Source: an uncultured delta proteobacterium
Lineage (GTDB): Bacteria > Desulfobacterota > Binatia > UBA9968
Direction: 5' to 3'
Assembly: GCA_963816145.1 (NCBI GenBank)
Contig: CAWFJP010000004.1
Location: 480,001-544,000, forward strand
Length of the DNA: 64,000 nt
Below, piece after piece: positions 20,484 through 30,978 of the stretch. The notes under the pieces are model-generated. The model saw only the letters and a list, made by a program, of their open reading frames with translations, was not told where the DNA came from and ran no database searches. Every line of letters starts with the position of its first letter. Position 1 is the stretch's first letter. A program made the translations under genes and the position numbers.

Positions 20484-20967
20484 TTGCCCCGGACCGGCTC
20501 GAAATCAATGCAACAATTAAGTCAATACGCATGCCTATCCCATCGCTGACCGAGTTTGTTGATTGTCTAGCATGTCGAGGTTTAAAACTTTTAGGCTCAC
20601 TCGTTCAACTAGAAAATAATGTCTTTCAAATCGTCAGCGTCGTGTTGCCCGAGGAATCGTAAGAATCGCACTGGTAATGAATGAACAAAGAAAGTTCTCT
20701 TATATAAGTTGACCTGGTTATCTCTCCAAGAAATGCGGCGCTATCGCTATGTGCTAATTCCGCTGGTAGACCCTGGTTCTCTCTACCCCTCTGAGACCCT
20801 GGCTCTTTGACGGTTCTCGGACTGGCTATACACCGCTCTACTTTATGACTGTTATAGCTGGCCCAGTTTCCCTGATAACATTATGACTTGAAGAGCCGTT
20901 TTGACGTGTGGAAACATTAAGAACGAGGTATGATTCTCAAAAAATTTACGGGCATTAGACGAATTCT

Positions 20968-23895
20968 ATGGGAAATTTTGCGACACCCAGCACGGTCAGT
21001 TCAACGTTCAATCTAATCGAGCGGGTCCGGACGGAATGTCGCGACCATCCGAAGGCGGTCGCCATCGAGTCGGGAAACTGCCGAGTAACCTACGCTGACC
21101 TGGGTCATCAAATTGACTCTATTGTGGCCATGATGCGAAAGTCATCTTGCGCGCCAGGCGAAGTGATCGCCGTCATGGTCGCGGACCGGGCGGCCCTCAT
21201 CGCCGTTATGCTCGGTGTGCTACAAGAGGGCTGTGTCTTTGTGCCGCTAAACGACGACGCGCCGGCCGAGCGGCTGCGCCGTGTCATTAGATGGCTCCAA
21301 CCGAAGCTGGTTCTGACCACCGAATTACAGCAGTCAACTGTCAAAGGTCTTGTCGCGAGCCTCGGTGAGGCAACTTCGGTACTGACGGTTCCGTGTGCTG
21401 TTGAGAAGACACCCGATGAGGAAGCGGCACGGACTCCCGTGGCTTCTCCGACCGAGATCTTCGTGCCGACCGCTAACGCACCCTCCTACGTATATTTTAC
21501 TTCCGGCTCCACCGGTCAGCCGAAAGGTATCGCCGGAACTTTGACCAGCCTGGCCAAACGTATTGCCTGGGAGATCGATGCCTTTCAGATCCCGCGCGGT
21601 TTTCGCGTGAGCCAGCTAATCACCGCGACGTTTGACCCATGGTTTAGGGATATCTTTGTTCCGCTTTGCGCAGGGGGCACCATTTGCATACCGCCGGATC
21701 GACCGGCTCGACTGAGTCCAGAATCGCTTCTCGAATGGCTCCGCGATGCGAAGATCAATCTCATGCATTGCGGCCCGACACTATTTAACACAATGGTCAG
21801 CACGCCACCCCGGATCCGAAGGCTTCCGGATTTGCGCCAAGTCTTACTCTCCGGCGAGTTTTTGCATGTCTCGCTGGTATCTCGCTGGCGGCGGCGTTTC
21901 GGCTCGGAGACACAACTCGTTAACCTCTACGGTCCCACTGAAGCGACCATGGCGCAGTTCCACCACATCGTCGAGGCGGCGGACTTGAAGCGTGACTTCA
22001 TTCCCATCGGGCGAGCGCTGCCGGACGTGGATATCCTGCTCCTAGACGAACAAGGCAAACCTTGCGCGCCCGGCCAAATGGGCGAGATTTTAATCGGTGG
22101 CCCGACTTTAAGTTTGGGTTATTTTCGCGATGACGAGGAGACCCGCAAAGCGTTTGTCGAAATGGCGATGCCGGATGGTGATCGGAAGCTTTTTTACCGC
22201 AGCGGCGATGTCGGCGTGGAATTCGCCGGCGGAATGTATCGGCTCTTAGGGCGTCGGGACGATCAAGTAAAAATTCGCGGTGTCCGGGTTGAACCGCGAG
22301 AGGTGGAAGATGCGCTTATAGGTTATCCGCTTGTCGCGGCTTGCGCGGTAACGGTACATAGATGTGGAGAAGGCGAGTCCACGCTCGTTGCCTACGTCGT
22401 GCCGGAAACGGAATATCCACCGGCAATTCCCGAGATGCGAGCCTACCTCCGCGAGCGTTTGCCGTTAGAGTCCGTTCCGGCAAAAATCGTGTTGGTCAAC
22501 CAACTCCCCGTCACAGACACTGGCAAAATCGATCGGCGCAGGTTGCCCGAGCCGGGGCAGATGCTGCAGGAATCAGAGGATCACGGCACCGCACCGCGCA
22601 ATCTGTTGGAATCCGCGCTGGCGGAATACTGGTGCGAAATTCTTGGCTTGCCGCGCGTCGGTGTCCATGATCACTTTCTGGACCTGGGAGGGCACTCGCT
22701 GAGTGCAATGCGCTTAATCAACAGAGTCCGCTCGGACCAAGGCATTGGACTGTCGGTGGTGGATATTTTAAATAACCCTACCGTCGCAAAGCTAGCGGTG
22801 CGAATTGAGGCTCTCACCGCTACCGAGGAGAGAACGCCGAACATTGCCATAGGCACTGCAGCGCCGCGTTTACCAAATCTCTTGACTGCCACGACTACTC
22901 AGACGCCTCCAGATTTGGAGAGCGACTTTGCCTGCCCTGAAAAACCGTCGCCCCTGTTCGGCGCCCGCCATTGCAACCTCGTCCTGTTTCTCGGCGACAG
23001 CGGCGATCGCGACAGCTTTGAAAACGTTCGCCATTGGGTGGAGAAATTCGATCCGACGATTCACGCCGAGATCGTCGAGGATAAGCCCGGTTGGTCGACC
23101 GACCTGCCGAGCCGACCGTCATTGTTCTTTTCACCGGCATTGATCCGCAATCGACCGCGTATTCCCGGTCATATCGCTTGTGGCTTTCCGTTGAGCAAGA
23201 GCGAGGAGTACTTGATTCTAGCCAAGGCTGGTATTGCCGTGCCGCGTTGGGTAGCCCTGCGGGAGAATGAGATGCCCAACCTGAATGGGTTCGGCGAGTA
23301 CGTTGTGCGCAAGCCCGATTACGGCGCCAAAGGTGCCGAGGTGCGCATCGTCAAGCGTGAACGTGTTCGCTGGAAACGCGTGGTCACTTCGGCAGCGGGC
23401 CCAAGTCCCACGTTGCTCGTGCAGGAGTTCATTTACACCGGGCCGTGGCCCGTCAGCTACCGCGTCAATACTCTTTTCGGCCGTGTCCTGTACTGCATAC
23501 GAATTACGGCCAACCACACCCGCCCGGTTCTGCGCGGCGCCAACGACTTCGACGTCCGAGGATCGGGAAATACCGTGTCGATCGTTTCAAATGTGCGCGA
23601 CTCCACGGCTGAGTATTGCGATGACGTTGAGATCATTCGGTTTGGCGAGCAAGCGGCCCGCGCATTTCCTGACTTGCCGATGTTGGGTGTCGATATATTG
23701 AAAGAAGCCGGCGGCGGGCGATTGTTCGTGACCGAGGTCAATGCGCTCGGGCACAATTGGAACTTTGGCAAGGAATTTCGCGACAACTTTGCCCTCGATC
23801 CTGCAAGCCAGTTCGACGGATTACGGAAAGCCGCCTTCGTTCTAGCCGAGCAAACACAGAGCCTTGCGAATCTCGCTCGCAATGCCGATTCGTAA
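20968..23895 (+). CDS. Stand-alone NRPS-like protein: adenylation + PCP + C-terminal ATP-grasp-like domain
   Basis: A-domain cores YFTSGSTGQPKG, NLYGPTE, GEILIGG..LGY, YRSGD, GRRDDQVKIRG, TGKIDR; PCP DHFLDLGGHSL (Ser at 22696); ATP-grasp-like RKPDYGAKG, LVQEFI, GVDI, TEVN. Confidence 0.85.
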   Translation: MGNFATPSTVSSTFNLIERVRTECRDHPKAVAIESGNCRVTYADLGHQIDSIVAMMRKSSCAPGEVIAVMVADRAALIAVMLGVLQEGCVFVPLNDDAPAERLRRVIRWLQPKLVLTTELQQSTVKGLVASLGEATSVLTVPCAVEKTPDEEAARTPVASPTEIFVPTANAPSYVYFTSGSTGQPKGIAGTLTSLAKRIAWEIDAFQIPRGFRVSQLITATFDPWFRDIFVPLCAGGTICIPPDRPARLSPESLLEWLRDAKINLMHCGPTLFNTMVSTPPRIRRLPDLRQVLLSGEFLHVSLVSRWRRRFGSETQLVNLYGPTEATMAQFHHIVEAADLKRDFIPIGRALPDVDILLLDEQGKPCAPGQMGEILIGGPTLSLGYFRDDEETRKAFVEMAMPDGDRKLFYRSGDVGVEFAGGMYRLLGRRDDQVKIRGVRVEPREVEDALIGYPLVAACAVTVHRCGEGESTLVAYVVPETEYPPAIPEMRAYLRERLPLESVPAKIVLVNQLPVTDTGKIDRRRLPEPGQMLQESEDHGTAPRNLLESALAEYWCEILGLPRVGVHDHFLDLGGHSLSAMRLINRVRSDQGIGLSVVDILNNPTVAKLAVRIEALTATEERTPNIAIGTAAPRLPNLLTATTTQTPPDLESDFACPEKPSPLFGARHCNLVLFLGDSGDRDSFENVRHWVEKFDPTIHAEIVEDKPGWSTDLPSRPSLFFSPALIRNRPRIPGHIACGFPLSKSEEYLILAKAGIAVPRWVALRENEMPNLNGFGEYVVRKPDYGAKGAEVRIVKRERVRWKRVVTSAAGPSPTLLVQEFIYTGPWPVSYRVNTLFGRVLYCIRITANHTRPVLRGANDFDVRGSGNTVSIVSNVRDSTAEYCDDVEIIRFGEQAARAFPDLPMLGVDILKEAGGGRLFVTEVNALGHNWNFGKEFRDNFALDPASQFDGLRKAAFVLAEQTQSLANLARNADS

Positions 23896-24142: not shown

Positions 24143-24783
24143 CCCATCCTTCCCAACTGGCAGGGTAATCGATCTAAAAAACAAATAAAAACAACCCTCA
24201 CAGTTAAAAGGTCTCCACTACATCGGGCATGATTTTGTTAGTGGACCCGTTGGCCGCCGGCAGTGATTCGGGGTGGCGGCTGGGGCGGCAAAGTGAGATT
24301 GAGTTGTTCTAAGAGAAGCTTGTGATCGGTGTCGGGCTCGGTGTAACGGCTAAGAATCAAAGTGCGGCCGTCGGTGGTGGGAAACTTGACATCGAGCATC
24401 TGCAGGGTGGCAAACTTATCGAGCACCGCGCGAGGCGTCAGTCCATCTGCCACAGGCCGTAGCCTGGCCTTGAGCGTGACGTGCAGGCAATAAGAGATAA
24501 ACGCCACAAAGATATGCGCTTCGATGCGAGATTGAAGCTGGTGGTAAATCGGCCGCAATTGAAGATCGTCTTTTAAGTTTTTGAAGGCCGCTTCAATCTC
24601 GACCAGTTGGATGTAGAACTGCCAGAGCTGAGCGGGCTCTCGGCCCGACAGATTGGTCCGTAGCAGATAGCGGCCCTCGCGCCGGCGCTTCTTCGCCCGA
24701 AGTGGCCAAGAATTTCGTCGACAGGGAGACAGCTGTGAGGCTGGGCGCTGCCAATGGTTGCGCGGAAGCTGCTCTATTTCCAC
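24143..24783 (-). mobile_element. IS1634-family transposase C-terminal remnant with right end
   Basis: EGRYLLRTN, YIQLVEIEAAFKNLKDDLQLRPIYHQ..RIEAHIFVAFISYCL, PPQPPPRI; N-terminal part missing; end position approximate. Confidence 0.8.
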
Positions 24784-25453: not shown

Positions 25454-25885
25454 TCAAATGACGGCAATTGTTTGTAACTTGCAGCGTCGAGCGGCCGCCA
25501 GTTGCCGTTCGTCGGCGCTGATGAATGGCAGCAGCGCGTGCACGGACTGTTGGATGACGAGCGCCGAGGCGAGATGGATCGCGTCGAGCGTCCAAACTTG
25601 GTGTTTGACGACGACTTCTTCAGCTTTGGCCAAGACTTGCGGCACGGATTCGACTAGTTGCCAAAACGAGCGGTCGGTTTTGACGCGAGCTATGATCGCA
25701 TTGTAATTCGCTCTAGTGATGTCGCCCTGGCTGTAGCGCCGTTGCACTGCCGAGTGTAATTCGATAGGCGCGATCGCCGAGGAAAGGAATTCATGAGTTG
25801 TGAGAAGCACGCGAACTTGCGCCGAACCTGCTTCTTGTACGTAGTTCTTGACGAGGGCGCTTGTGTCGAAATAGGCCAGGCTCAC
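25454..25885 (-). CDS. vapC: PIN-domain VapC-type toxin
   Basis: YFDTSALVK, TLDAIHLASA, FISADERQ; GTG start overlaps antitoxin stop. Confidence 0.88.
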   Translation of the reverse strand: MSLAYFDTSALVKNYVQEAGSAQVRVLLTTHEFLSSAIAPIELHSAVQRRYSQGDITRANYNAIIARVKTDRSFWQLVESVPQVLAKAEEVVVKHQVWTLDAIHLASALVIQQSVHALLPFISADERQLAAARRCKLQTIAVI

Positions 25886-26166
25886 CGCTCGTCTCGCTCT
25901 TCGCTGATTGTGCCGGCGAAGGGCTCGCCTTTGATACGAATAGGGGAGCGCCAAGCGAGCATCGGTTTTCCGCTTTTCGGACCGCGCCGCAAGATCCCTT
26001 CGGCTTCCAGGCGGCGCATGACGGCGTCGGCATCATCTTTCGCTGCCAACGGCTTGATCACGGCGATGGGCTTGCCGCGCTCCGTTAAGATCACGTCTTT
26101 GCCGGATTTGACTGCCTTGATCGCTTTGGAAAAGCTCTGATTGGCCTCTCTCAATCCCATACGCAT
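25882..26166 (-). CDS. Phd/YefM-family antitoxin
   Basis: MGLREANQSFSKAIKAVKSGKDVILTERGKPIAVIKP. Confidence 0.88.
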   Translation of the reverse strand: MRMGLREANQSFSKAIKAVKSGKDVILTERGKPIAVIKPLAAKDDADAVMRRLEAEGILRRGPKSGKPMLAWRSPIRIKGEPFAGTISEERDER

Positions 26167-26184
26167 TGGTGTGCCCCAGTAAAC

Positions 26185-26228
26185 TGTAGTGATGTCACTA
26201 CAATATGATGGATGGTGTGAAGTGTCAA
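26185..26228 (-). promoter_or_regulatory. sigma70-type promoter with overlapping palindromic operator for the TA operon
   Basis: Minus strand TTGACA-17bp-TATTGT; palindrome TGTAGTGA-tg-TCACTACA at 26185-26202. Confidence 0.7.
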
Positions 26229-26662
26229 GCGCACTTGTTAAAGGTCTGTTGAATACGCCGGCGAACATTAGGAAATATGACGAGATGCGGTGACCGAGTG
26301 CGCATGGCGGTGCGAGTCTGGAGCGTGGAATTGAAGTGATGCGACATGGAAAGTCATATCCTAAAAATCCAATGCCGAATCTGAGTTCCGGGCGAAAATA
26401 ATTGCCAGTGGACACAACCATTAGATCCTCGGGCGCGAGGATGTCTAAGAATATCCGGCCGGAAAGGTAACAGGAGATCAGCGGTCGGTGAAGCCAAATG
26501 AGCCCACCCCGAAGCAAGCCGGCGCAATAACCAAGATTTAGCGGCGATGGCAGCATGCTTCCCCAAAGTGTGTGATGGCAAGACCTGTTCCCTTGCTTGG
26601 CCTCGCTGTCGGAGAGCGATATGGCTCGACATTTTCAGGAATTTCTGCTGAATAATCAGAAC

Positions 26663-27754
26663 ATGGAAGAGACAATCTCAGCGATCGACACGATCACGCT
26701 CCGCATTCCGTTGGACATCTGGGCTCCGGCGCCAATGTCTCAAGGTGTGCCGCGCACGCATGTTGAAAGTCTTTATGTGCGCGTGACGACCCGTAGTGGC
26801 CTAGTGGGTTGGGGGGAGTCATTCGGCACAGCCCGTCCCATGGTCGTCGCAGCGATCGACAACTGGATCAGGCGTCTCGCAGTTGGACAGAGCGCCTCGG
26901 ATGAGCAACTCGTGGCACGCATAGAACGCATGTTGCTTTCATTGAGCCGCTCCGGTCCGCTGGCCCACGCGCTCGCGGGACTCGACATTGCGCTGTGGGA
27001 CATCCGGGGGAAGCTTGCGGGCGTGCCGGTGTCGACGCTCCTGGGCGGCGCCAAGCGAACCCGCGTCGAATGTTATGCCTCGTTGCTGCAATATTCCGGC
27101 AACCCAGAATACATCAAGCGCAACACCGCTCGCGCGCTCGAACGCGGTTATCGCCTGATTAAGCTCCATGAGCGCTCCCCCGAGGCGGTCGCTGCTGCGC
27201 GCGAGGTGACCGGTCCGGACATTCCTCTTATGGTGGATACCAACTGCGCTTGGACTTCGGCCGAAGCCGAAGCGGCGGTCGCGGCGATGGCGCCGTACAA
27301 GCCGTTCTGGGTCGAGGAGCCGATCTATCCTCCGGAGGACTTCGAAGCGCTCGCCAAGCTGCGCACGGTCACCGGCGTACCGATGGGGATCGGCGAGAAC
27401 TCAACCAGTCTGCGCGAGTTTCGCCGAATGGTCACCATCGGCAAGGCTGATTACGTTCAGCCCGCCATGGTCAAGCTGGGCATCACCGCCATGGCGAAAG
27501 TAGCGGCCGAGGTCGAGCAGGCGGGCGCCACCTGCGTGCCGAACGCCTTTTATCTGGGACCGGCTTTTCTCGCGGTGTTGCATTGCCTCGCGGCAAAGGA
27601 AAAAGTTTCGCCCCTCGAACGGATGTTTGCCGACTTCGGCGCTACGCCGTTCGCCAAGACCGTACCTATCATCAACGGCGGGGTTGAAGTCCCGCAAAGC
27701 CCAGGGCTCGGCGCGGACCCGGAAGATGAACTGATTGCACGGTTCAGAGTCTAA
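26663..27754 (+). CDS. Mandelate racemase/muconate lactonizing enzyme family (enolase superfamily)
   Basis: GWGE, DIALWDIRGK, KLH, MVDTN, WVEEP, GEN, PGLG. Confidence 0.9.
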   Translation: MEETISAIDTITLRIPLDIWAPAPMSQGVPRTHVESLYVRVTTRSGLVGWGESFGTARPMVVAAIDNWIRRLAVGQSASDEQLVARIERMLLSLSRSGPLAHALAGLDIALWDIRGKLAGVPVSTLLGGAKRTRVECYASLLQYSGNPEYIKRNTARALERGYRLIKLHERSPEAVAAAREVTGPDIPLMVDTNCAWTSAEAEAAVAAMAPYKPFWVEEPIYPPEDFEALAKLRTVTGVPMGIGENSTSLREFRRMVTIGKADYVQPAMVKLGITAMAKVAAEVEQAGATCVPNAFYLGPAFLAVLHCLAAKEKVSPLERMFADFGATPFAKTVPIINGGVEVPQSPGLGADPEDELIARFRV

Positions 27755-27855
27755 GTCCGCGCTGTCCAAGTACGGTGTGTCTGCTTCAGCGGGCATTATA
27801 ATATGTATAAGTCAAAACTCAGGCTTGATCCCGCTGCTCTGCTCCACCTATGTCG

Positions 27856-28257
27856 CTACGGCAACCTGATGTTTTCTACGGTGATTCCGAGGGATGGAGC
27901 GCGGGATAGCGGGCCATCGGCTGTGAGCAGCGTTGCATTGGCGATACGCGCAGCGGCGACGTAAAAAGCATCGTACGCACTGACGTTGTTCCGGTGTTGC
28001 CATGCAACTCGGAGAAGTGGCAGATGGGGAATCCGATCGACACTCCAATCCATTAGGTCATCGAGCGCGAGTGAGGCGCGGTGGTCAGAAAGCTCGCCGC
28101 GAAGCACCGCGCGTCTTAGTACCGACATCACTTCGACATCCAACAATTCGGGCGCCAGTAGCGTTGCGTCTTCAAGGATGTCGACCAATTTCAGCCCCAA
28201 CGGCGTTCGCAGCAGATATTCCGTAGCCGCCGACGCATCGATGACGTAACGGCTCAC
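27856..28257 (-). CDS. vapC: PIN-domain VapC-type toxin
   Basis: VIDASA, LAPELLDVEV, SAYDAFYVAAA, LLTADG. Confidence 0.88.
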   Translation of the reverse strand: MSRYVIDASAATEYLLRTPLGLKLVDILEDATLLAPELLDVEVMSVLRRAVLRGELSDHRASLALDDLMDWSVDRIPHLPLLRVAWQHRNNVSAYDAFYVAAARIANATLLTADGPLSRAPSLGITVENIRLP

Positions 28258-28487
28258 GGCAGATCGTTACCGCGCTGCCGGCGTTCCTCCTCAAGCAGCG
28301 CTGCTGCCGAGGTGCCGAGCGTGGTCGCCGGGCGGGTGGAGAAGCGTTTGTGCCATTCCCGGCGCGCCACTTCCCGCTCGATTGCTTCCAAGACGATATC
28401 GCCAAGCGTGCATTCCTGCTGGCGCGCGTATCGGCGCAGCTGGTTATGCAGCTTTTGCGGTATGTTTTTGACTTGAATATTCGCCAT
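28254..28487 (-). CDS. FitA-like ribbon-helix-helix antitoxin
   Basis: MANIQVKNIPQKLHNQLRRYA; overlaps toxin start. Confidence 0.8.
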   Translation of the reverse strand: MANIQVKNIPQKLHNQLRRYARQQECTLGDIVLEAIEREVARREWHKRFSTRPATTLGTSAAALLEEERRQRGNDLP

Positions 28488-28497
28488 GTCGGAGATT

Positions 28498-28516
28498 AGC
28501 ATGCCGCGGGCATGCT
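28498..28516. promoter_or_regulatory. Palindromic putative antitoxin operator
   Basis: AGCATGCC-gcg-GGCATGCT just upstream of the antitoxin start. Confidence 0.55.
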
Positions 28517-28629
28517 GGCAATCGCGAGGTGAAATCGGCCAGCGGATGCTAGCGGGTCAACTGGTGGCGATTACGGACCAGCCACTGTTGCGTGGCGCAA
28601 CAGGCGAAAGTTCAGATGGTAAAGGCGCG

Positions 28630-28887
28630 GCAGAAATAGCGGCCCAGGTGGCATCGGGCGCCACTTGCGTGCCGAATACATTTTATATCGGATCGGCTTT
28701 TCTCGCGGTGCTGCACTGCAAGGTGGCAAAGGAAAATGATTCGCCGCTCGAGCGGATGTTCGCCGACTTCGGCGCGACGCCGTTCGCCAAGACCGTTCCA
28801 GTGATCGACGGCGGAATCGAAGTTCCGCAAGCCCTAGGTCTCGGCGCGAACCCGGACGACGACCTGATTACTCGGTTCAGAGTGTAA
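28630..28887 (+). pseudogene. Diverged duplicate of the 3' end of the enolase-family gene
   Basis: ATCVPNTFYIGSAFLAVLHC...SPLERMFADFGATPFAKTVP...RFRV matches the C-terminus of 26663-27754; similarity continues past the stop. Confidence 0.85.
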
Positions 28888-28945
28888 GTCCGCTCTGTCC
28901 AAGCACAGCGCCTCCGCTTCCGCGGCCATCGTAATGTGAATAAAT

Positions 28946-30978
28946 GTAGGGTCGAGGACTGGCGCGGTATCTCGTAGGTGAAACCTATCTGTTACCGTCT
29001 CTTTCGTCTGACGGTGCCTCACTAGCTCCACCGTAAACCCGTTTCCAGCCCCCGCCACCTCAAACCGGACGTGACCCTTTCGGTCATCCGGCTTTCCTGC
29101 GTCTGTTCGTCGGCGGCGCTATCTGCCTAGCGCGCTGGAGACACTTTCACCGGCGATCGATAGAAGTACTGGACACGATAATCGTCAACCAGTCCCCATT
29201 CTTTGTAGATCGCCTCGTTACTCCATCTCTTCCAGCCACAGCCAGGGCGGCCTTTCTGTTTCATTGCAAACCGGCGTATCTGCCTCATGATCGCAAAGCG
29301 TATCCAATCAAACGCCCGGCGCGAGTTGCCCACTCGGAAGTAGTGCACCCAGCCCACTATCACAGGCCGGATCTTTTCCAGGACTTCCTTGGTTGAACAA
29401 TGCCGGGAGTATTTCAAGATGTGTCTGACTCGCTTGAGCAGCTCACTCTGCTTCTTTGTCTTCGGGGTCCGCAACACGAACCGCTTGCCGAACCGATTGT
29501 GCGCCGCTCTGAAATCAAATCCCAGAAAACCAAAGCTCGCGCCGCTACCGAAGTCCACCACCTTGGTCTTTTCTTCGTTGATCTCAATCGCCACTTTCTT
29601 CAGCTCTTGGTCCAACCGCTTCTGGATCATCCCCACGTGCGGTTGCCATTGCGGATAACCATCGACCAAAATCACCATGTCATCCGCATAGCGGGTGTAC
29701 ACCACCCGTTCCCATCGCCCTTCTCTTCGCCGCTTGGCCGTTTCTTCTTCCATCGCTTGGTCCAATTCGTTTAAATACAAATTGGCCAATAGCGGTGATA
29801 GCACTCCCCCTTGCGGAACTCCTTTGGCTCCGTTGACCTTCAGGATCTGCTTGACCAGATGAAGGATTTGGGGGTCTTGCACTCTGCGAGCTAGCTTCTG
29901 AAGTAGAAGATGATGGCGAACGTTGTCGAAATAGCTCTTGAGATCAACGTCGAGGACTCGGCTGAGCCCTTGCACCAGCCCGTGAACCACGCGATCGAGC
30001 GCTTGGTGCGCTGTCCGTTTGGGCCGGTACGCAAAAGAACTGGTGTGAAAATCAGCTTCAAAGATCGCCTCCAAGATCAGCTTCACGGCTCCCTGGACCA
30101 CTCGATCTTTGATGGTGGGTATTCCCAACCGGCGCGTCTTGCCATTCCCTTTGGGAATTTCCGCCCGCCGATTCTTGCTCGGCTTGTAACTGCGTGTGAG
30201 AAGTTCTTCGCGTATGGCGCTTAGGAACTTCTCCACGCCGCGGGCCTCGATCAACGCAAAACTTTCCCCATCGATCCCCACCGTCCCATCATTCGCTTTG
30301 GCTTGCTGATACGCCGCTCTTAAGGTCTCCATCTTGATCACGTGAACGTAGAGACCCCAAAACCGCCACTGCTTCTCGGCTTTCGCCTTTCGATATATCC
30401 TTCGCCTCAGTTCTTGCAGATTAACGGAAGACTTTATCATCTCTTCCCTGCCTCACCTTGCGGTCGAAAGAATCAAACCCAGCATGGCCCCTTCGCTCCA
30501 TCCGCATTACCAGACTTCACCGCTACTACGGGCCACTCCGCCATCCTGCTGCCTTCGTCCCCTTTCCTGTCTCCAGTTATAGGGCCGACCTGCTCCGCAG
30601 ATTTCTCCACGGGGCATACAGGACTTCTCCAGTTTCTGTCGTGCCCTTGTGACCGTGTCGCCGCCAATACCCCGCCGGTGTGGAACTATCCCCTATGCCA
30701 GTCTGACATAGCCCATGCTGTCTTCGCCGAATTTTGAGCGGCTCGACCACCGAAAACTAACCCATCCTTAACGAGGCTTGCTCAGCGTTTACTCACGTTG
30801 CAACCCGGTCACTCGCTCATCAGCCCGAAGCTGACTTTGTCGGTAGGCTCCAGCATCTCGATTGCTCTCCATGCTGCTACCCAAGCTAGGCGGCTCCTGG
30901 CTCTTACCGCCGCGGGACTTCCCTCACCTAACTGACAGTTCACCCTATGGTCCACGACAGCTTTTCATCTGGACACGC
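28946..30978 (-). mobile_element. Full-length group II intron (IIB-like, endonuclease-less)
   Basis: 5' end GCGTGTCCAGATG; D5 AAGCCGGATGACCGAAAGGGTCACGTCCGGTTT; D6 ending GACCCTAC; joined flanks align with the empty paralogous site at 27812/27813. Confidence 0.9.
29127..30440 (-). CDS. ltrA: Group II intron reverse transcriptase/maturase
   Basis: RRLGIPTIKDRVVQ, GVPQGGVLSPLLANLYL, YTRYADD, FLGF, X-domain GWVHYF; no HNH domain. Confidence 0.93.
   Translation of the reverse strand: MIKSSVNLQELRRRIYRKAKAEKQWRFWGLYVHVIKMETLRAAYQQAKANDGTVGIDGESFALIEARGVEKFLSAIREELLTRSYKPSKNRRAEIPKGNGKTRRLGIPTIKDRVVQGAVKLILEAIFEADFHTSSFAYRPKRTAHQALDRVVHGLVQGLSRVLDVDLKSYFDNVRHHLLLQKLARRVQDPQILHLVKQILKVNGAKGVPQGGVLSPLLANLYLNELDQAMEEETAKRRREGRWERVVYTRYADDMVILVDGYPQWQPHVGMIQKRLDQELKKVAIEINEEKTKVVDFGSGASFGFLGFDFRAAHNRFGKRFVLRTPKTKKQSELLKRVRHILKYSRHCSTKEVLEKIRPVIVGWVHYFRVGNSRRAFDWIRFAIMRQIRRFAMKQKGRPGCGWKRWSNEAIYKEWGLVDDYRVQYFYRSPVKVSPAR

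Follow-up and report, generated by a model that had tools for sequence, protein, structure and literature searches.

This study concerns a gene in a 64,000-nucleotide stretch of DNA (the window) from an uncultured delta proteobacterium (assembly GCA_963816145.1, contig CAWFJP010000004.1, positions 480,001-544,000 of the forward strand). The gene encodes one protein in which an adenylation (A) domain and a peptidyl carrier (T) domain, as found in nonribosomal peptide synthetases (NRPSs), are followed by a C-terminal ATP-grasp domain (G). The gene and its parts are as follows:

20968..23895, plus strand: A-carrier-ATP-grasp gene, 975 amino acids (aa), a single open frame without stops
21031..22527, plus strand: adenylation domain, aa 22-520, specificity code DPRHLSLMAK, catalytic Lys520 (Pfam, TIGR01733, alignment)
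22615..22797, plus strand: peptidyl carrier domain, aa 550-610, with phosphopantetheine-bearing Ser577 at codon 22696-22698 (Pfam, alignment)
22834..22920, plus strand: disordered linker rich in Pro, Ala and Thr, aa 623-651, without the acidic helix of multimodular relatives (model, hidden Markov model (HMM))
22972..23865, plus strand: ATP-grasp domain, aa 669-966, with K744, K782, Q819, R832, D909, E923 and N925 (model, structure searches, alignment)

Domain architecture and fold of the protein

The original prediction, made from the sequence alone, had described a complete A domain, a carrier and a C-terminal ATP-grasp region in one frame, and this layout is borne out by Pfam, TIGR01733 and a structural model. 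Pfam places AMP-binding at residues 22-386, AMP-binding_C at 445-520 and PP-binding at 550-610, and the motifs GGHSL, RKPDYGAKG, LVQEFI, GVDI and TEVN cited in that prediction are all present in the translation. With 325.4 bits against a TIGR01733 cut-off of 317.4, the first domain is identified as an NRPS adenylation domain; its equivalents of Asp235 and Lys517 are D223 and K520, and both Lys520 and Ser577 are invariant across 65 aligned proteins. The PF00550 match with its GGxS serine, together with a phosphopantetheinyl transferase (PPTase) encoded in the genome, marks the second as an NRPS carrier domain. ATP-grasp_3 matches residues 744-925 (E 1.2e-4) slightly below its cut-off in the whole-protein scan, and passes when the C-terminal part is scanned alone (25.5 vs 23.2 bits). 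In the full-length model the A, carrier and ATP-grasp domains form separate folded units joined by the disordered linker, and the A-carrier part matches NRPS structures. A complex prediction for the carrier and ATP-grasp domain with ATP and Mg scored 0.00 and was counted neither way.

A sequencing indel as the origin of the fusion is ruled out, since contigs from three other DNA runs span the carrier/ATP-grasp junction without gaps and the architecture recurs in homologues. One other-run contig covers the whole gene with 11 substitutions; in run X1 a low-depth contig carries a 1-base gap at 21269, where a deeper contig is gapless. Three short contigs from RNA run X19 fall on the gene at a depth of about 3, and as the flanks are matched too, they provide no evidence of expression.

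The ATP-grasp assignment of the C-terminal region, which had been offered on motifs with a call for a structural check, is upheld by a model of residues 651-975 with a mean predicted local distance difference test score of 95.5 (based on a 112-row alignment, some rows of which included N-terminal carrier sequence) and by two structure searches, all of which agree on the three-subdomain ATP-grasp fold with leading matches at Z 19-20. Among 48,161 chains the best match is LysX/ArgX (5k2m; Z 19.7, root-mean-square deviation 3.6, 250 residues aligned), followed by ArgX (3vpb; Z 19.6), RimK (4iwx; Z 18.8) and DcsG (Z 17.5). The first three tie within about 1 Z, all four are carboxylate-amine ligases, and Foldseek puts the same ligases on top (E 7.5e-13). 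LysX, ArgX and RimK activate the carboxylate of protein-bound glutamate. Sequence identity to every structural match is below 19%; a sequence search of the domain against the PDB gave nothing significant, profile searches returned weak ATP-grasp matches only, and atlas look-alikes comprise RimK-like and unnamed clusters only. The catalytic residues are well preserved: K744 and K782 correspond in alignment to the ATP-binding lysine pair of D-Ala-D-Ala ligases, E923 and N925 form the metal-binding E-x-N motif, and K744, K782, Q819, D909, E923 and N925 are kept in all 65 fused proteins and in 105-112 of the 112 members of the wider family. ATP-grasp_3 matches 65 of these 112 and RimK (PF08443, E ≤ 0.01) matches nine; the RimK-family model TIGR00768 scores 18.2 bits against a cut-off of 143.4, which leaves the window domain outside the RimK/LysX family. 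The earlier statement that one polypeptide combines two ATP-using chemistries is thus sustained by the A domain and the ATP-grasp fold.

Distribution and organization of the fused domain

The protein had been presented as a stand-alone architecture, and whilst the lone A-T-G form is real, it is no isolated case: the ATP-grasp domain is a conserved NRPS appendage, and A-T-G is one of the forms it takes. A search of proteins of 536-1707 aa gives 74 matches to the C-terminal domain (the window's own included); all have a carrier domain, and the 73 others share the architecture of the window protein. The carrier is likewise present in 91 of the 93 domain matches among proteins of 570-2000 aa. An unfiltered domain search yielded 461 representatives at E ≤ 0.001, and most of the 150 listed are stand-alone proteins of about 300-340 aa. 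The fused architectures span A-T-G, C-A-T-G (C being a condensation domain) and three- and four-module proteins, and of the five domain types modelled, ATP-grasp invariably comes last in a redundant set of 151. In the precomputed Pfam column ATP-grasp is shown for only one of the 74 long matches, so that product predictions for these clusters lack a bond-forming step.

The fusion was placed in a tree with 19 fused and 34 stand-alone rows, which represent 144 and 111 rows respectively after clustering at 62% identity, with five fragments excluded by hand and the stand-alone rows limited to the first 34. All 19 fused rows lie on one side of a branch (SH-aLRT support 100), so that the fusion of the ATP-grasp domain to an A-carrier unit probably arose once; FastTree on 202 rows agrees on a single fused group (0.94). 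Multimodular forms make up a group of 10 (support 98) and the window's lone type a group of four (96), with other lone A-T-G lineages branching between them at a backbone support of 83, which only suggests that the lone form is the older. The multimodular group had appeared as subclade I in an earlier tree with a support of 0.011, as against 98 in the 53-row tree. The domain is rare, being found in two of 101 relatives' genomes, three of 123 in the order and one of 401 in a phylum sample, each count including the source genome, which is the sole carrier in the last. A homologue with about 54% identity is attributed by name to a Casimicrobiaceae bacterium, and a plasmid collection gave no match for the ATP-grasp domain.

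The two forms differ in what surrounds the domain, as seen in a comparison of 46 multimodular proteins (26 with a C domain) and 71 lone proteins, the window's included. An acidic helix resembling the tails of ordinary NRPS subunits lies between carrier and ATP-grasp domain in 33 of the 46 (by an HMM trained on 29 of 52 NRPS C-terminal tails from the source genome), and we take it to be a docking element; in the lone form neither this helix nor a C domain occurs in any of the 71. Full-length C domains in C-A-T-G modules keep HHxxxDG in 19 of 22. The next gene starts with a whole C domain at seven loci (L047, L049, L051, L054, L055, L056, L070) and with a partial one at four (L050, L052, L053, L061); it begins with an A fragment at L048 and a thioesterase (TE) at L057, and L058 and L059 offer too little sequence. 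L056 is a small complete cluster with A-T-G, C-A-T-TE and PPTase genes in a row, and in another genome, G508, a C-A-T-C-A-T-C-A-T-G gene precedes further modules. The acidic helix and the C-starting next genes indicate that in multimodular forms the ATP-grasp domain is usually not the end of the assembly line. The stretch of G508 at C105:123558-145996 (L095, L096) holds an A-T starter, a thiamine pyrophosphate-enzyme gene, a three-module NRPS ending in ATP-grasp and followed by two non-canonical A-T genes like a set found in the source genome (see below), and a further C-A-T gene; it is cut by the contig end.

Lone A-T-G homologues number at least 70 at 52-78% identity, with full frame and all catalytic residues kept. 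Of ten lone-form metagenome loci that extend 1 kb or more beyond the gene in both directions, four (L030, L040, L041, L042) also carry a C-starting NRPS gene in divergent orientation. The flanks of close homologues match many different sites of the source genome, indicating that the lone gene moves or is lost alone. An amidohydrolase gene beside seven of these homologues was considered as a partner and rejected, as it lies at another site in the source genome and was taken to reflect location. A distant D-Ala-D-Ala-ligase-like ATP-grasp gene (15% identity) lies at C18:94404-95288 of the source genome (L097:4404-5288), at a distance of 1.5 kb from this amidohydrolase, the neighbour of the A-T-G gene in several relatives; the proximity may be chance.

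Stand-alone members occur as tandem pairs or triplets (L081:1221-3163, L086:9100-12028, L087:9770-11733, L065:9036-12253), and at L081, L086 and L087 asparagine-synthase-like genes lie on either side of them; these are polysaccharide loci that also hold a flippase and acetyltransferase genes, a setting in keeping with, though not specific to, an amide-forming tailoring role. A HIT-family gene lies directly 5' of a stand-alone ATP-grasp gene at L001, L002:9405-10888 and L005:6922-8368, two of which are titled Polyangiaceae. Further members are P0226, a tandem double ATP-grasp protein of 700 aa, and P0134 and P0135, two long proteins that end in the domain and whose preceding regions match nothing in Pfam at 1e-5.

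Specificity pocket and a proposed two-step ligation

Re-extraction of the specificity code, with positions placed by motif offsets and numbered according to the table of PMC6562525, returned the predicted DPRHLSLMAK (D223, P224, R227, H267, L293, S295, L320, M328, A329, K520). A [DE]xRH pocket precedes carrier and ATP-grasp domain in 107 of 119 readable proteins (74/84 at 90% clustering, 35/45 at 70% and 23/32 at 60%), while such a pocket is found in one of the 69 other A domains of the source genome. At loci whose fused module has a different code and whose following gene is readable, the following module is DxRH in 4/4 cases (L047, L051, L054, L056), which amount to about three independent cases as L051 and L054 are close kin; L048 and L049 were not readable for code. 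The available text on the zeamine NRPS gives the code of Zmn16 module 1 as DPRHLALLAK (PMC3547906), identical at eight of ten positions to that of the window protein and at nine to the commonest multimodular code, and assigns the corresponding position by nuclear magnetic resonance as a side-chain-linked 'gamma-aspartate' (PMC5811116). The DxRH code thereby groups the window protein with side-chain-carboxyl-activating A domains of the Zmn16-A1 type, in agreement with the pocket type first proposed. As to substrate, glutamate or aminoadipate had been suggested initially, but the zeamine code is the nearest citable one and points to aspartate first: the A domain is likely to load aspartate, with glutamate or aminoadipate less likely. 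For the Lys2 and McyE codes cited in support of that suggestion no literature passage was found, and A-domain matches in the plasmid collection are at most 46% identical, none being characterised.

Combining pocket, fold and context, we favour, by a modest degree, a two-step ligase in which an acidic residue (aspartate, glutamate or aminoadipate) would be loaded through its side chain and its carrier-bound alpha-carboxyl then amidated by the ATP-grasp domain. That domain would activate the free alpha-carboxyl by phosphorylation and couple it to an amine, for which ammonia, an amino acid or repeated additions of aspartate or glutamate in the manner of RimK are candidates, leaving a residue with both carboxyls engaged that would act as a branch point. 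In C-A-T-G modules the C domain takes the alpha-amine, so that the alpha-carboxyl is the group left free for the ATP-grasp domain, and the freeing of this carboxyl by side-chain loading would account for the co-occurrence of the domain with DxRH modules, in the same module or in the adjacent one. Multimodular relatives would pass the branched unit to the condensation domain of the next subunit. For the lone form, transfer in trans to a C-starting NRPS encoded elsewhere is one possibility, to which the divergent pairs point; alternatively, the new amide might attack the thioester and cyclise, so that the product releases itself as a succinimide, a route proposed on chemical grounds. The original prediction had envisaged ligation without a condensation domain, which is true of the window protein itself; its relatives, in which C domains are intact or the next gene starts with one, argue that the ATP-grasp domain adds to condensation and does not simply replace it.

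Several observations weigh against the two-step ligase. The accessible text of PMC12283262 lists aminoadipate under the same DPRH code and 'Asn' under a similar one (its supplement has no DPRH rows), and other codes (Thr, Gly, unassigned) occupy 10 of 84 non-redundant fused modules, or 9 of 32 at 60% clustering; for most of the 10 the adjacent genes were not readable. The association with DxRH is partly shared ancestry, as all fused copies form one clade, and lone proteins leave the alpha-amine free as well, so that the argument from C-containing modules is not directly applicable. There is no NRPS partner next door in six of the ten lone-form loci, in a further genome (G006) or in the window, and no conserved neighbour supplying an amine or a release enzyme was found at the loci examined. 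ATP-grasp kinases score only 2.5 Z below the best ligase match.

The free amine of the lone form is the starting point for an alternative that we regard as unlikely, namely that a free acid is activated by the ATP-grasp domain and coupled to the alpha-amine of the residue on the carrier, so that the chain would grow at its amino end and a condensation domain would be replaced. Of the alternatives this one comes nearest to the original prediction. According to the accessible text of PMC7183216 this is the chemistry of both known thiotemplated ATP-grasp enzymes, of butirosin and closthioamide, and the complete lack of C domains in the window's subclade and the branching of lone lineages outside the multimodular clade are consistent with it, that backbone support being only 83. 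The same domain, about 50% identical, nonetheless stands behind modules with intact C domains that would use that amine, and amine acylation leaves the DxRH pocket in the same or next module unexplained. We looked to C-domain-free hosts as a discriminator, but the source genome, G006 and G508 all have C domains. It is rather less probable that the domain acts on untethered molecules, either pre-making a building block or modifying or cyclising a released peptide in a graspetide-like manner, with the fusion serving proximity only. The prevalence of stand-alone, carrier-free members of about 310 aa, the copies beside asparagine-synthase-like genes, the loose linker and the invariably terminal position would fit such a role; the fusion, however, probably arose once and was kept (SH-aLRT 100), always directly behind a carrier, and a lone gene yields no released peptide of its own to modify.

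It appears improbable that the gene has broken away from a larger assembly line and yields no working product: it has no partner in the window, adjoins a transposase remnant, is rare among kin and lacks a docking-like helix, but its many homologues keep frame and catalytic residues at numerous partnerless sites, the genome has a PPTase, and lone lineages do not nest within the multimodular clade. Still a little less credence is given to a domain that has the ATP-grasp fold but is no amide ligase, serving instead as a kinase, as an enzyme that forms acyl phosphates for some other reaction or as a scaffold that binds ATP. The structural matches do include PPIP5K2 (Z 17.2), synapsin (16.6) and ITPK1 (15.3), and every match is below 19% in sequence identity, whereas the four best are carboxylate-amine ligases and ATP-grasp_3 and RimK matches, the E-x-N motif and both lysines recur across the family.

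Several known systems bear comparison with the proposed two-step ligase. BtrJ, which we take to be the ATP-grasp ligase of the butirosin pathway, offers one parallel. With CtaD of closthioamide it shares an ATP-grasp enzyme, a phosphopantetheinyl carrier and aspartate or glutamate, and the accessible text of a 2020 paper names only these two as ATP-grasp enzymes with carrier-bound substrates. Each is a separate protein that does its own carrier loading, has a pyridoxal phosphate (PLP) decarboxylase as partner and dispenses with an A domain (PMC7183216). The window domain, in contrast, is fused behind an A-carrier unit, occurs also in C-A-T lines and probably acts on a tethered carboxyl, and no decarboxylase was found among the flanking genes scanned, so the locus does not have the stand-alone ATP-grasp enzyme, separate carrier, PLP decarboxylase and missing A domain of such a pathway. 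LysX, ArgX and RimK are the closest folds (Z 18.8-19.7) at 15-18% identity and with TIGR00768 far below its cut-off; their partners are LysW or ribosomal protein S6, as opposed to a thioester-bearing carrier in cis. The domain may work like either set of enzymes while belonging, by the tests run, to neither the RimK/LysX family nor BtrJ/CtaD-type pathways. NRPS-like enzymes such as Lys2 (A-T-reductase) and A-T-TE synthetases are also single modules without a condensation domain that end in a catalytic domain. The window protein differs from them in ending with ATP-grasp, not a reductase or thioesterase, and in having relatives at subunit ends mid-line, and its TIGR03443 match is far below cut-off. 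Zeamine Zmn16 module 1, with its closely similar code, is an initiation module giving side-chain-linked aspartate; C domains follow it in cis, and an ATP-grasp domain is not described in the accessible text (PMC3547906, PMC5811116).

As to whether the architecture had already been characterised, searches of full-text literature turned up no paper that describes an NRPS with a fused ATP-grasp domain, with most subscription papers and a 2009 survey of ATP-grasp architectures beyond their reach, and the fusion is not mentioned in the accessible text of PMC8842026, PMC12426817, PMC8141463, PMC8692599, PMC12042044, PMC7214866 or PMC6562525; an earlier mention is, at a guess, possible but unlikely. 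We put forward more tentatively than the ligation itself, and with slightly less than even confidence, that the appended ATP-grasp 'branching' domain represents an undescribed class of NRPS catalytic domain permitting chain growth from both carboxyls, with the lone A-T-G protein its minimal, possibly ancestral and self-releasing form. NRPS domain types form a short, well-catalogued list to which a fused ATP-grasp domain would, if this is true, be an addition. Pairing of a DxRH module with ATP-grasp would then serve as a rule predicting branched aspartate or glutamate and as a search handle for clusters of uncultured soil and wetland bacteria, and would offer NRPS engineering a graftable branching domain, with the 975-aa lone protein as a simple test case.

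Genomic setting of the gene

The original prediction had placed the gene between an AT-rich gap and an insertion sequence remnant, and both are present:

20484..20967, no strand: AT-rich gap 5' of the gene, 44% GC (composition scan)
24238..24783, minus strand: transposase (DDE) remnant, a neighbour only (Pfam), with two partial relatives elsewhere in the genome

The GC content of the gap is in the lowest 0.3% of same-size windows of the genome, and no sigma-70-like promoter, terminator or Rfam match was found in it. Horizontal acquisition had been suggested on these grounds. Recent transfer is not supported, as the gene has a GC of 57.5% and a third-position GC of 0.64 (22nd percentile) and close homologues lie at many different sites of the lineage's chromosome; the patchy spread within the order does show gain, loss or movement. 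A 28-codon frame at 20930-21016 (plus strand) with a good ribosome-binding-like GAGG begins 38 bases 5' of the gene and runs past the gene's start codon in another frame; no clear site accompanies the ATG of the gene itself.

The 64-kb window contains no A, C, T or TE matches besides the gene's own and no condensation or TE/reductase release domain, so that no canonical NRPS module or line is present, although such domains do occur in relatives' loci. The earlier report of no C domain, thioesterase or PPTase nearby therefore holds for the window, and for PPTases on the whole contig, but not for the genome, which encodes an Sfp-type PPTase on contig C17 and has 32 condensation-domain matches outside the window. 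About 28 single-module A-T genes are also spread over many of its contigs, mostly about 650 aa long and with codes lacking the conserved Asp235; many end in an acidic helix, and the nearest (C4:443090-445057 and C4:455452-457386) lie outside the window. Within the window, positions 25454-30440 look mobile, with two PIN-domain genes and small partners, a partial repeat of the end of a mandelate-racemase-like gene at 28486-28887 and a group II intron reverse transcriptase at 29127-30440.

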